DNA of 64,000 bases, taken from Alphaproteobacteria bacterium. GTDB lineage: Bacteria; Pseudomonadota; Alphaproteobacteria; UBA8366. This document shows positions 10,865 through 18,295 of this stretch, piece after piece. The position numbers and the translations under genes were made by a program. The notes under the pieces are model-generated. The model did no database searches, had not been told where the DNA came from, and saw only the letters and a list, made by a program, of their open reading frames with translations. Each line of letters opens with the position of its first letter. The stretch's first letter is position 1. The DNA lies in contig OZ245851.1 of assembly GCA_965228975.1 (NCBI GenBank), positions 2,933,953-2,997,952 of the forward strand, in the 5' to 3' direction.

Positions 10865-12109
10865 ATGGATTTCGACCTCACCCCCGACCAACGGGATTTG
10901 CAGCAGCGCGCCCGTGATCTTGCGCAGAATGTCTTTGCCGCCCGCGCGCCGGAGATCGACAAGACCGAGGAATACCCATGGGACAACGCCAAGGCGCTGA
11001 ACGAAGCCGGTTTCATGGGCATGACGATTCCCAAGGAATATGGCGGCCAGGGCCGAAGCTTTCTCGATGCGGTTCTGGTCATCGAACAGATCGCCATGGT
11101 CTGCGGCGTCACCGCGCGGATCGTCGTGGAATCCAACATGGGCGCGATCAGCACCGTCATGCGCTACGGCACCGAAGAACAGAAACGTATGGCGGCGGAC
11201 GTGATCTTCTCGCGCGCCGACAAGCCGGCGATCTGCATCACGGAGCCGGAGGCCGGCAGCGCCGCAACCGAAATGACGACGCGCGCGGACAAGCGCGGCG
11301 ACAAATGGGTGATCAACGGCAAGAAACATTGGATCACGGGCGCCGGCGTGTCCTGGCTGCACCTGATCTTCGCCCGCGCCTTCGACGAGGACGGGACGGA
11401 ACTGGGTATCGGCGGATTCCTGGCCCTGCGCGACGAGACGCCCGGTCTCCGCATCGGCGACCGCGAACCGACGATGGGCCTGCGCGGCATTCCCGAAGCC
11501 GAGGTCATCTGCGAGGACATGGAAGTGCCAGCGGACGCCTTGGTCGAATCGCCCAGCGGCTTCAAGCGCGGCTTTGCCGACCTGATGAACGCCTACAACT
11601 CGCAACGGGTCGGCGCGGGCACCATCGCGCTCGGCATCGCCGCCGGTGCCTACGATCACGCGCTGATTTATGCGCAAAATCGCGAACAATTCGGACGCCC
11701 GATCGCCGAGTTCCAGGGCCTGCAATGGATGCTGGTCGACATGGACAGCCAGGTCGCGGCGGCCCGCGCGCTGATCTACAAGGCGGCGGCCAGCGCCGAG
11801 AAAAGCAACATGGGCTTCCCCGACGTGAAGCTGGCGGCGCAAGCCAAGATCGTCGCTTCTGAGATGGCGATCAAGGTCACCAACGATGCGCTCCAGATGT
11901 ACGGGGCCGCCGGTTATTCGCGGCGCAACCCGATCGAGCGCATGGTCCGCGACGGCCGGATGTTCACCATCGGCGGCGGCACCGCGCAAATCCTGCGCAC
12001 CGTCGTGGCCTCGCAGATTCTGGGGCAGAAACTGCCGCAAACCCGCGACGGGTACCTGAAATTGGCGCAACGGGAAGCCGCCGACAAGGCCGGCAACGCC
12101 GCCGAATAG
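10865..12109 (+). CDS. acyl-CoA dehydrogenase
   Basis: 414 aa with ACAD N/M/C layout and a typical C-terminus, RMFTIGGGTAQILRTVVASQIL. Confidence 0.9.
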   Translation: MDFDLTPDQRDLQQRARDLAQNVFAARAPEIDKTEEYPWDNAKALNEAGFMGMTIPKEYGGQGRSFLDAVLVIEQIAMVCGVTARIVVESNMGAISTVMRYGTEEQKRMAADVIFSRADKPAICITEPEAGSAATEMTTRADKRGDKWVINGKKHWITGAGVSWLHLIFARAFDEDGTELGIGGFLALRDETPGLRIGDREPTMGLRGIPEAEVICEDMEVPADALVESPSGFKRGFADLMNAYNSQRVGAGTIALGIAAGAYDHALIYAQNREQFGRPIAEFQGLQWMLVDMDSQVAAARALIYKAAASAEKSNMGFPDVKLAAQAKIVASEMAIKVTNDALQMYGAAGYSRRNPIERMVRDGRMFTIGGGTAQILRTVVASQILGQKLPQTRDGYLKLAQREAADKAGNAAE

Positions 12110-12198
12110 AGCGCCGACGGCGGCGCGGCTTCTCTTCTGTGAAACCGGTGGTAGACTGTCGGCGATTCGTTTGACGTAACCATCAAAAGAGGGAGCGA

Positions 12199-12645
12199 AT
12201 GTCCTTACCCGAAATCGGAAGCGACGCGCCTGGTTTCACCTTGCCGAACCAAGACGGCAAGTCGGTGAGCCTGGCGGATTACGCGGGCAAGAACGTGCTG
12301 TTGTGGTTCTACCCCCGCGCATTCGGCAACAATTGAACCAAGCAAGCCAACGGGTTCCGTGATCGAACCCAAGACTTTGCCGACAAGAACACCGTCCTGT
12401 TGGGCATCACGTTCAGCTCGACCGAAGACCTGAAATCCTGGCGGAACGAGGTGGGGTACACCGCGGACCTGCTGCAGGACCCGGACCGTTCCGTCGCCAT
12501 GGCCTATGGCGCGGCGGACAGCGCCGACCAAGAAAAGGCCACCCGCGTTTCCATCCTCGTGGGACCGGACGGCAAGGTTGCCAAGACCTATGCCGACATG
12601 AACGCCGAGGCCCATCCGGCCGAAGTGCTCGCGGAATTGGGGTAG
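12199..12645 (+). CDS. Bcp/AhpC-TSA-type peroxiredoxin with in-frame UGA (12334-12336) at the peroxidatic-Cys position; candidate selenoprotein
   Basis: ATG 12199 follows AGAGGGAG. The reading is MSLPEIGSDAPGFTLPNQDGKSVSLADYAGKNVLLWFYPRAFGNN-TGA-TKQANGFRD..., and the same frame runs to TAG 12643-12645. The ORF track shows only the 3' part (12400..12645). FYPRAFGNN[U]TKQANGFRD aligns without gaps to E. coli Bcp FYPKAMTPGCTVQACGLRD. Confidence 0.7.
12342..12380 (+). promoter_or_regulatory. bacterial SECIS-like stem-loop downstream of the in-frame UGA
   Basis: Upper stem GGGTTC (12352-12357) pairs with GAACCC (12365-12370), with the 7-nt loop CGTGATC containing GU. A possible lower stem is GCAAG (12342-12346) with CTTTGC (12375-12380). 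The structure starts 6 nt after the UGA. Confidence 0.5.
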
Positions 12646-12678: not shown

Positions 12679-12721
12679 AACGAAGGGCGCGATACCGACG
12701 ATCGGTATCGCGCCCTTCGTT
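12679..12721. terminator. bidirectional intrinsic terminator hairpin
   Basis: Near-perfect ~20-bp inverted repeat AACGAAGGGCGCGATACCGA / TCGGTATCGCGCCCTTCGTT between convergent genes. Confidence 0.7.
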
Positions 12722-12736
12722 CATTTGGCGAGTCTG

Positions 12737-13891
12737 CTAGGCGGCGGCCTTCACCGGCACGACCGGCGTATCCAGGATCGGGTCCAGGCCGAGCGCCAGC
12801 CGTCCCGTGAACTGCTGTTGGCGTTTCTCGGGCAACGGATGGAATTGCACGCCATGCGCGTCGCGCAGCAACCGTTCCAACCCGAGCTTCGAGTAGAAAC
12901 CCGAACCACCGGCGGTTTCCAAGGCCTTCTCGACCGTGGCGATCACGGCATTGGCGGCGATCGTCTTGCGGACGAGAATTGCGTTCGCGGTCTCCGGCGT
13001 CGCGTCGAACTGCCAATCGTTGGTGATACCGATCATGGCGTCGACCGCCAATTGCGCGGTGGTCAGCGTGTTGGTCAACTCGCCCAACTGAAACGGCGTC
13101 GCCGGATCGGCGATGCGCTTGTTCGCCTGGGTTTGCGCGATCTCGGCGGCGGCTTCGGCAACTCCGACATAGGCCGACAGGATCAGCGGCATGGCGACCG
13201 TCAGGATCACGTTGAACGCCATATGATAGGCATGGCGCGGCCGCCGCATGACGACGGCCGCGTCCGGCACGAACACGCCGTCTAGGACGACCGTTTCCGA
13301 GCCCGTGGCCCGCATGCCGAGGGTATCCCAATCGCCGGCGCGCGATATGCCGTCACTCGCGAACGGCACCGGGAAGTGCAGCACCTGCCAACCTTCCTCC
13401 GGGTCTTCATAGGGCGCGGACGTGACCAAAACGTCGCCCTTCGGCGAACCGCTGGCGAAGGGCTTACGGGCGGTAACGCGGAAGCCGTCGGCGACGCGCT
13501 CCACCTCGCCGTTGGAGCCGAGCCAGTCGTTGGCGCCCGTGCTGACAAGCACCGCTTCCTTTTCGGCCACACGCTCCAGCAGTTTCTGCCCCGGCCGGCC
13601 GTTGCGGTAGTTGAAGACGGCGGCGGCCACGAGATGCTGATGCATCGATACGGCCAGCGCGGTGGAACTGCAGTAATGCGCCAGACCGCGCAGGAAGGCG
13701 CACATCTCGCTATGCGAGGCACCACCCCCACCGAGTTCGGTCGGCACGAGCGCGGAAAATACCTTCCGCTCGCGCAGGGCGTCGTAATGGTCGGCGACGA
13801 ACTCAGCCACTGCGTCGCGATCCGACGCACCCACAGCAAAACGCGGGCCGAGGTCTTCGAGGATGGCGTTGAGGTTGATGGAGGTCGTCAT
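12737..13891 (-). CDS. acyl-CoA dehydrogenase family protein
   Basis: 384 aa with an ACAD-like fold pattern (VFSALVPTELGGGGAS..., GFRVTARKPFASGS). Confidence 0.8.
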   Translation of the reverse strand: MTTSINLNAILEDLGPRFAVGASDRDAVAEFVADHYDALRERKVFSALVPTELGGGGASHSEMCAFLRGLAHYCSSTALAVSMHQHLVAAAVFNYRNGRPGQKLLERVAEKEAVLVSTGANDWLGSNGEVERVADGFRVTARKPFASGSPKGDVLVTSAPYEDPEEGWQVLHFPVPFASDGISRAGDWDTLGMRATGSETVVLDGVFVPDAAVVMRRPRHAYHMAFNVILTVAMPLILSAYVGVAEAAAEIAQTQANKRIADPATPFQLGELTNTLTTAQLAVDAMIGITNDWQFDATPETANAILVRKTIAANAVIATVEKALETAGGSGFYSKLGLERLLRDAHGVQFHPLPEKRQQQFTGRLALGLDPILDTPVVPVKAAA

Positions 13892-17455: not shown

Positions 17456-18295
17456 TCAGGATTTGGTCCTGAGCCCGTCAATGAGTTTCGAGACTTCGTC
17501 GGCCGCGTCGACCGAGACCATGCCGACCGTGTGGTACCCGGAGTCCACATGATGGACTTCGCCGGTCACGCCGCTGCTCAGGTCCGATAGGAGATACAGG
17601 CCGGAATTGCCGACGTCGTCGAGCGTGACGTTGCGCTTGAGCGGCGAATTCAACTCGTTCCATTTCAGGATATAGCGGAAGTCGCCGATCCCGGACGCGG
17701 CAAGCGTCTTGATCGGGCCCGCCGAAATCGCGTTGACGCGAATGTTCTGCCCGCCGAGATCGACCGCCAGATACCGCACGCTCGCCTCCAACGCCGCCTT
17801 CGCGACACCCATGACATTGTAATGCGGCATCACGCGCTCCGACCCGTAATAGGTCAGCGTCAGGATGCTGCCGCCATTCGGCATCATCTCCGCCGCGCGC
17901 TGGCAGAGCGCGGTCAGCGTGTAGCAGGACACATCCAGGGTAAGCTGGAAATTGGCGCGCGACGTGTTGACGTATTTGCCGGTCAACTCATGCCGGTCGG
18001 AAAAGGCGATGGCATGCACGATGAAGTCAAGGCTGTCCCACCGCTTACCGATCTCGGTGAACAAGTTGTCCAGGCTACCGTCGTCGCCGGCATCACATTC
18101 GATGATGAAGTCCGACCCGACCGATTCGGCCAGCGGCTTGACCCGGCGTTCGAGCTGCGGCGCTTGGTAGGAAAAGGCGAGTTCGGCCCCATGGTCGGCA
18201 AGCACCCGAGAGATACCCCAGGCGATCGAGCGGTCGTTCGCGACCCCCATTACCAATCCACGTTTTCCTGCCATCAGCGCTTGCGGCTCAGCCAT
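17456..18295 (-). CDS. fabI: enoyl-[acyl-carrier-protein] reductase (NADH)
   Basis: GKRGLVMGVANDRSIAWGI...; 279 aa with a FabI-type SDR pattern. Confidence 0.95.
   Translation of the reverse strand: MAEPQALMAGKRGLVMGVANDRSIAWGISRVLADHGAELAFSYQAPQLERRVKPLAESVGSDFIIECDAGDDGSLDNLFTEIGKRWDSLDFIVHAIAFSDRHELTGKYVNTSRANFQLTLDVSCYTLTALCQRAAEMMPNGGSILTLTYYGSERVMPHYNVMGVAKAALEASVRYLAVDLGGQNIRVNAISAGPIKTLAASGIGDFRYILKWNELNSPLKRNVTLDDVGNSGLYLLSDLSSGVTGEVHHVDSGYHTVGMVSVDAADEVSKLIDGLRTKS

Follow-up and report, generated by a model that had tools for sequence, protein, structure and literature searches.

An in-frame UGA at the peroxidatic position of an alphaproteobacterial BCP/PrxQ-type peroxiredoxin gene, read as a probable selenocysteine codon

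How should a TGA be read when it interrupts an otherwise open peroxiredoxin (Prx) frame at the very codon where the catalytic cysteine is expected? This question is raised by a locus in a 64,000-nucleotide stretch of DNA (positions 2,933,953 to 2,997,952 of contig OZ245851.1, assembly GCA_965228975.1) from a member of the Alphaproteobacteria in the UBA8366 lineage; the whole stretch is called the window in what follows, and positions are counted from its first letter. A single frame of 148 codons runs on the forward strand from the ATG at 12199 to a TAG at 12643-12645 (feature 12199-12645), with one in-frame TGA at 12334-12336. From the ATG it reads MSLPEIGSDAPGFTLPNQDGKSVSLADYAGKNVLLWFYPRAFGNN, then the TGA, then TKQANGFRDRTQDF..., with the TAG as the next stop, and the residues around the interruption are ...FYPRAFGNN-[TGA]-TKQANGFRDR.... 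The open reading frame (ORF) listing of the window accordingly breaks the gene into two pieces, a stub of 45 aa (12199-12336) and a fragment of 81 aa that starts at a TTG (12400-12645). A sequence-only reading of this DNA had proposed that the TGA encodes selenocysteine (Sec) in a Prx that ORF calling had missed. On the comparative evidence presented below, 12199-12645 is very probably one functional gene, encoding a 148-residue BCP/PrxQ-type peroxiredoxin in which UGA 12334-12336 would specify Sec46.

The protein family and the position of the TGA within it provide the starting point of the argument. Profile searches were run on the translation with Cys substituted at the TGA, and matched Pfam AhpC-TSA (PF00578) over profile positions 1-123 of 124 (E = 2.1e-30; 105.7 bits against a cut-off of 26). 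The segment FYPRAFGNN-[TGA]-TKQ aligned without gaps to FFPAAFSPVCTKE of the Aeropyrum BCP (2cx3), FYPAAFTQVCTKE of 2ywn and FFPLAFTGICQGE of M. tuberculosis AhpE, which puts the TGA on the experimentally established peroxidatic Cys and Gly43 on the conserved Thr/Ser; homologs carry either Cys or TGA in exactly this column. The active-site loop P39-R-A-F-G43 (12313-12327, forward strand), as delimited by alignments to the family and to the BCP and AhpE structures, therefore retains two elements of the PxxxT/SxxC motif—the conserved Pro39 and the C/U position—with Gly43 in place of the near-universal Thr/Ser. This replacement is found in all family members, Sec-forms and Cys-forms alike. Arg116 (codon 12544-12546, forward strand), the conserved Prx active-site Arg, is invariant across the family alignments, the position of the Bcp resolving Cys (+5) is occupied by Asn51, and the deduced protein contains no Cys at all. 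The sequence-only reading had listed each of these features, from the UGA on the peroxidatic Cys to the retained Arg, the Gly and Asn replacements and the missing cysteines, and all of them were borne out. Elsewhere in the family, a non-conserved Cys93 occurs in about half of the Sec-forms, and the Cys-forms L031 and L034 retain a Bcp-type CTKQAC with the resolving Cys at +5.

Structural modeling adds to this assignment. The AlphaFold model used is that of the closest Cys-form homolog, P0001, which is 68% identical to the window protein and stands in for the window sequence (pLDDT 95.4, pTM 0.90). In this model, residue 46 lies in the first turn of helix 44-55, following strand 32-37, and the best Protein Data Bank (PDB) neighbours returned by Foldseek were Bcp4, Bcp1, AhpE, BcpB and PrxQ, with TM scores between 0.85 and 0.91. 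The predicted architecture is thus a thioredoxin fold in which helix alpha2 carries the peroxidatic residue in its first turn, as in peroxiredoxins.

A scan of species-representative genomes recovered 35 related loci, all of them in metagenome-assembled genomes (MAGs). Their labels are Alphaproteobacteria, Rhodospirillaceae or Rhodospirillales, except for two Proteobacteria, two Gammaproteobacteria and one 'uncultured bacterium'. The two Gammaproteobacteria-labelled loci (L026, 4246-4305, and L029, 1300-1359) could reflect either horizontal transfer or MAG mis-binning. Full-length orthologs are present in 34 of the 35 species-level genomes, and the catalytic column is TGA in 29, TGC or TGT (Cys) in five and frameshifted in one. 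Within the stop-form set (n = 30) the codon is TGA in every case, each TGA-form contains exactly one internal stop, and the Cys-forms (n = 5) are single uninterrupted ORFs. Such conservation of TGA at a catalytic column is far beyond chance.

Purifying selection acts on both halves of the gene. Across the 30 TGA-forms, the part upstream of the TGA (codons 2-45) has a dN/dS (Nei-Gojobori; medians over pairs unsaturated at synonymous sites) of 0.15, and the downstream part (codons 59-147) one of 0.21. The protein sequence is likewise conserved over codons 47-67, between the TGA and the TTG at 12400. At shorter evolutionary distance, four close relatives (L039-L042) come from independent metagenomes and share the window synteny. 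L041 and L042 differ from the window by 22 synonymous and 2 non-synonymous codons, and L039 by 36 synonymous and 14 non-synonymous codons; all three retain the TGA together with an identical hairpin downstream of it (see below). The fourth, L040 (4333-4780), carries a late frameshift and sits on a long-read contig of 2x coverage on which three neighbours are also damaged: the membrane-fusion gene is broken into two pieces, as is the second acyl-CoA dehydrogenase gene, and the RND pump gene yields a shortened product. On the same contig the first acyl-CoA dehydrogenase and a hydrolase are intact, and the DUF2141 call is the same as in L039. We attribute the L040 frameshift to assembly error because of the low coverage and the three damaged neighbours. 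Only one other disrupted copy was found, also frameshifted, in L024 (10001-10445). The sequence-only reading had held that random frame disruptions among close relatives would betray a pseudogene; what these relatives display is clean purifying selection and no such pattern.

A third line of evidence comes from the RNA level. An RNA element near the UGA had been suggested as something to look for, and a conserved stem-loop was indeed found just 3' of the codon, under synonymous-site constraint. In the window, this hairpin, which resembles a selenocysteine insertion sequence (SECIS), occupies 12352-12370 on the forward strand—stem GGGUUC at 12352-12357, loop CGUGAUC at 12358-12364 and stem GAACCC at 12365-12370—after a 15-nt spacer from the UGA. 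The form GGGUUC/CGUGAUC/GAAYCC occurs at the identical position, 15 nt 3' of the UGA, in 30/30 TGA-forms. It is absent from all five Cys-forms, which keep the peptide x-F-R-D-R/H and write it with CGC/GAC/CGC-type codons. Among the TGA-forms, the third-position majority fraction is 0.97 in codons 52-57 versus about 0.58 elsewhere, and mean synonymous entropy is 0.24 in codons 52-57 versus 1.28 outside codons 47-58 (Mann-Whitney on synonymous entropy, codons 47-58, p = 7e-5). The choice of Arg codons illustrates the same constraint, with Arg54 written as CGU in 30/30 TGA-forms and Arg56 as CGA in 28/30, whereas Arg40 is CGC in 26/30. Stem pairing is maintained in 98.9% of cells, register slides abolish it, and G26 and G28 of the loop are invariant. 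These invariant guanosines fit what has been published on bacterial SECIS elements, which are described as stem-loops directly 3' of the UGA with a conserved G in the apical loop, and the conserved hairpin is, as far as comparative sequence analysis can identify one, a bacterial SECIS signature. The codon at position 57 (12367-12369), within the 3' arm of the hairpin, encodes Thr (ACC) in 18 of the 30 TGA-forms, with AUC, GCC, GUC and UUC variants that mostly keep the pairing; the RNA structure seems to limit the choice of residue at this site.

Public protein databases present this family in a fragmented state. About 15 full-length homologs (147-151 aa, 57-68% identity) were retrieved in a protein search, together with over 100 clusters of ~82-aa fragments restricted to the C-terminal 55%; an in-frame stop common to many relatives would be expected to produce just such a pattern. 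At the TGA column, the full-length database homologs carry Cys in 11 cases and Trp in five (P0005, P0008, P0010, P0011 and P0013). The DNA underlying P0013 has a TGA at the Trp codon in three independent metagenome contigs (loci L036-L038, e.g., L036:349-351), so that the Trp arose artificially, from gene callers that applied a TGA=Trp code to short contigs. Public calls thus consist of 45-aa and ~82-aa pieces, or of entries in which the TGA was read as Trp—precisely the oversight that had been supposed for the window gene.

Several results weigh against the Sec-peroxiredoxin assignment and have to be set beside this evidence. Covariation in the hairpin is weak, as 70 of 500 shuffles reach the observed score; it amounts to one G-C to A-U compensatory change, common to L026 and L029, plus G-U wobbles. 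It fails to reach significance because the hairpin hardly varies, and the claim for an RNA element accordingly rests on the synonymous constraint, on the unvarying position and on the difference between TGA-forms and Cys-forms. The hairpins of L026 and L029 also carry one U-U mismatch. Folding of the isolated 67 nt after the UGA gave a structure no more stable than those of shuffled sequences (z = -0.46), a non-significant single-sequence result that makes comparative analysis necessary, and an Rfam search of the whole window at gathering thresholds returned nothing, and hence no family matching the hairpin. The 64-kb window and the flanks of the 35 related loci contained neither a tRNA-Sec nor selA, selB or selD. 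Peroxidase activity, too, is not assured, because the active-site Thr/Ser is Gly and the best NCBIfam match, Bcp (PRK09437), scores 92.5 bits, under its equivalog cut-off of 140. Lastly, the actual insertion of Sec at the UGA is a prediction. As regards the machinery, ARAGORN detected no tRNA-Sec in the window or the 35 loci; a 92-nt 'tRNA-???' with a 2-nt anticodon that it called in L028 (18984-19075) falls within the coding sequence of an acyl-CoA dehydrogenase (…GISIFMVEKGTPGFS…) and was dismissed as a false positive. No second selenoprotein gene was found in the window or in the flanks of the related loci. Sec machinery is documented in Rhodospirillales generally, and a selC nested within selB has been described in Alphaproteobacteria (PMC8124441).

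Could the interrupted frame then be explained without selenocysteine? If the locus were a former Cys-peroxiredoxin gene inactivated by a nonsense mutation, the fragments that alone appear in public annotations and the frameshifts in the related locus L024 and the close relative L040 would be in keeping with decay. Such decay is difficult to reconcile with the same TGA at the same codon in 29 other species and no further internal stop, with the low dN/dS on either side of the TGA or with the 22 synonymous changes among the 24 altered codons of L041 and L042, and the L040 frameshift is assembly noise; the comparative data refute a pseudogene, to which we assign a negligible probability. Decoding of the UGA as an amino acid other than Sec (such as Trp, Gly or Cys), whether by a suppressor tRNA or under a reassigned code, might be suspected from the Trp in five database homologs, but these residues correspond to TGA in the underlying DNA, mistranslated by gene callers. 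Moreover, TGA is the terminal codon in 15 of the 29 complete TGA-form genes and ends 12 of 32 long window ORFs with high G+C at third codon positions (GC3), so the recoding is local and the genetic code is not a variant one, as the sequence-only reading had argued from the window. A hairpin conserved in position after the UGA, in TGA-forms only, also disagrees with decoding as another amino acid, and purifying selection on the gene is hard to square with the loss of catalysis that Trp or Gly would entail at a peroxidatic position otherwise occupied by Cys; we judge this explanation highly improbable, if marginally less so than a pseudogene. As negligible as the pseudogene is the notion that termination at the UGA is intended, yielding a 45-residue peptide and a separate 81-residue C-terminal protein from the TTG at 12400. 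Both ORFs exist mechanically, and most databases hold the 81-82-aa fragment. However, neither half would form a stable domain; the model shows one continuous thioredoxin fold with an active site assembled from both halves (position 46 and Arg116); the codons between TGA and TTG are conserved as protein, and the Cys-forms are uninterrupted. Collectively, the TGA/Cys column, the selection, the synonymous drift, the TGA stops and the hairpin exclude a pseudogene, a sequencing error and a variant code.

A different kind of alternative accepts the selenoprotein and questions its chemistry: the product could be a genuine Prx-fold selenoprotein that is not a conventional peroxidase and acts on another substrate or by another chemistry, e.g., as a redox sensor or as a reductase based on the selenol. 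No member, whether Sec-form or Cys-form, has the Thr/Ser, which is Gly throughout, a 2026 review holds the PxxxTxxU motif to be crucial for catalysis, and to the Bcp score below cut-off can be added the 35.6 bits against the PrxU model (NF040737; cut-off 270), far too low for membership. Conversely, the fold as a whole is canonical, as are Pro39, Arg116 and the peroxidatic position, and the CTKQAC of L031 and L034, with its +5 resolving Cys, points to descent from ordinary BCP peroxidases; nor does any conserved neighbour gene hint at another pathway. We therefore regard a non-peroxidase function as unlikely, although it deserves considerably more weight than any of the explanations that dispense with Sec.

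Returning to the Sec-peroxiredoxin, a mechanism can be proposed for its synthesis and activity. The hairpin at 12352-12370 in the mRNA would act as a SECIS and bind SelB carrying GTP and Sec-tRNA(Sec), as in the established bacterial pathway, and SelB, competing with release factor 2, would then deliver Sec to the ribosome. Judging from family membership, the selenolate of Sec46, positioned in the first turn of helix alpha2 beside Arg116, would attack the peroxide and be converted to a selenenic acid, which thioredoxin, glutaredoxin, glutathione or another external thiol could reduce. Because the window protein is devoid of Cys, an external thiol would have to reduce Sec46, i.e., the enzyme would follow a 1-Sec mechanism, which should be analogous to that of 1-Cys peroxiredoxins such as AhpE. 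The earlier proposal of a Sec-containing Prx, possibly of a divergent 1-Sec subfamily, is supported. We also put forward, as a tentative idea that is more probably wrong than right, that the GxxU/GxxC clade constitutes a distinct Thr-less branch of BCP/PrxQ with altered chemistry or substrate, in which the preference for Sec (29 TGA versus five Cys among 35 genomes) reflects selenium compensating for the missing activating residue.

Comparison with known systems sets the novelty of the locus in proportion. The portion of Dataset S1 of the Global Ocean Sampling (GOS) study covered here (Zhang & Gladyshev 2008, PMC2398784) includes, under '#Peroxiredoxin', the reads JCVI_READ_1320741 (...LWFYPRAFGNNUTKQINGFRDRAQDF...) and JCVI_READ_1091140759810 (VLIWFFPRAFGGGUTKQIDGFRDRIQSF...). 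Both reads fall in the very subfamily of the window product, with the same active-site strings (FYPRAFGNNUTKQ(I/A)NGFRDR and FFPRAFGGGUTKQIDGFRDR) and the same C-terminal sequence, and they were identified by the same Sec/Cys-pair logic as applied here. They are the two GxxU reads in that part of the dataset, set against 115 with TPGUT. The GOS paper names the Prx class 'TxxU' and counts Prx among the most abundant selenoprotein classes of the ocean; given this label, the Thr-less subgroup was recorded in 2008 and not singled out. What the window offers beyond these reads is a complete gene in its genomic context. The window gene is, then, a previously unannotated member of an ordinary kind of Sec-Prx, and Sec-peroxiredoxins, including the GxxU subfamily, are not new, having been catalogued in 2008; the GxxU active site and the Cys-free protein of the window are mildly unusual. 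In the same part of the dataset, canonical TPGU-type Sec-Prx reads (e.g., JCVI_READ_560720) carry the peptide NGFRDRIQDF just after Sec. This likeness in sequence hints that the TPGU-type reads may share the SECIS hairpin and that the GxxU clade may be their close relative.

PrxU of Eubacterium acidaminophilum (Sohling et al. 2001; NF040737) provides the experimentally proven precedent for a Sec-Prx, and such enzymes have been known ever since. Like the product predicted for the window, it is a peroxidase of the AhpC/TSA fold that has Sec as its peroxidatic residue. PrxU is a longer enzyme of the AhpC/Prx1 type with a canonical TxxU motif, and its host is an anaerobic Firmicute. In sequence as well as in structure, the window product is matched best by BCP/PrxQ, including E. 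coli Bcp (PRK09437; 2cx3, 3drn, 3hjp, 5epf and 3ixr), which has the active-site helix P...C-T-K-Q/E...FRD in common with the window product and whose C-x4-C is kept in two Cys-forms of the family. In contrast to BCP/PrxQ enzymes, the window product would have Sec for Cys, has Gly for Thr/Ser at -3, lacks the resolving Cys and scores below the equivalog cut-off of the family. AhpE of M. tuberculosis, a 1-Cys Prx (1xvw, 4x1u), is similar in size and fold (TM 0.85-0.87) and has a single redox residue recycled by an external reductant; unlike the window product, it uses Cys and keeps the Thr (PLAFTGIC), and the identity is only about 30%.

The genomic surroundings of the gene were also inspected. 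A Shine-Dalgarno-like GAGGGAG (12189-12195, forward strand) ends 3 nt 5' of the ATG; it was read from the sequence, and its function is presumed. Two genes of the acyl-CoA dehydrogenase family flank the Prx gene, at 10865-12109 on the forward strand and at 12737-13891 on the reverse strand, and close homologs of the upstream one are named '3-sulfinopropanoyl-CoA desulfinase' by some sources. The flanking arrangement is kept in the close relatives L039-L042 only and not family-wide, so the neighbours give no functional clue. The 89-nt gap between the stop of the upstream acyl-CoA dehydrogenase gene and the Prx start contains two terminator-like hairpins with T-rich tails (12111-12126 and 12145-12162), which suggests independent transcription of the Prx gene, although a sigma-70-like promoter was not found. 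Downstream, a perfect 20-bp inverted repeat with a 3-nt loop (12679-12721), identified by RNA folding, sits between the Prx gene and the convergent acyl-CoA dehydrogenase-like gene, and is probably a bidirectional terminator (-47.7 kcal/mol, z = -6.7; 0 of 200 shuffles fold as well). A strong terminator following only the full-length frame had been part of the sequence-only reading, and this hairpin agrees with it, even though a simple consensus terminator scan did not call it because of its weak U-tract (UUCAUUUGG). A scan of the window for other TGA-interrupted genes gave no convincing case: the long read-through candidates at 17458 (reverse strand), 42219 (reverse strand) and 54788 (forward strand) are adjacent genes in one frame across a TGA stop, with a new start a few codons later, and were not retained as selenoprotein candidates.

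These observations bear on how this family is annotated and on what it may teach about selenium in peroxiredoxins. Gene calling with TGA=Trp is a silent route by which selenoproteins acquire a false residue in databases. The family lacks an NCBIfam model and is systematically split or mistranslated in public records; with a dedicated model, this antioxidant selenoenzyme, widespread in marine Alphaproteobacteria, would be annotated correctly. Furthermore, the natural Sec/Cys pairs in this Thr-less Prx could be used to probe how far selenium replaces active-site activation.

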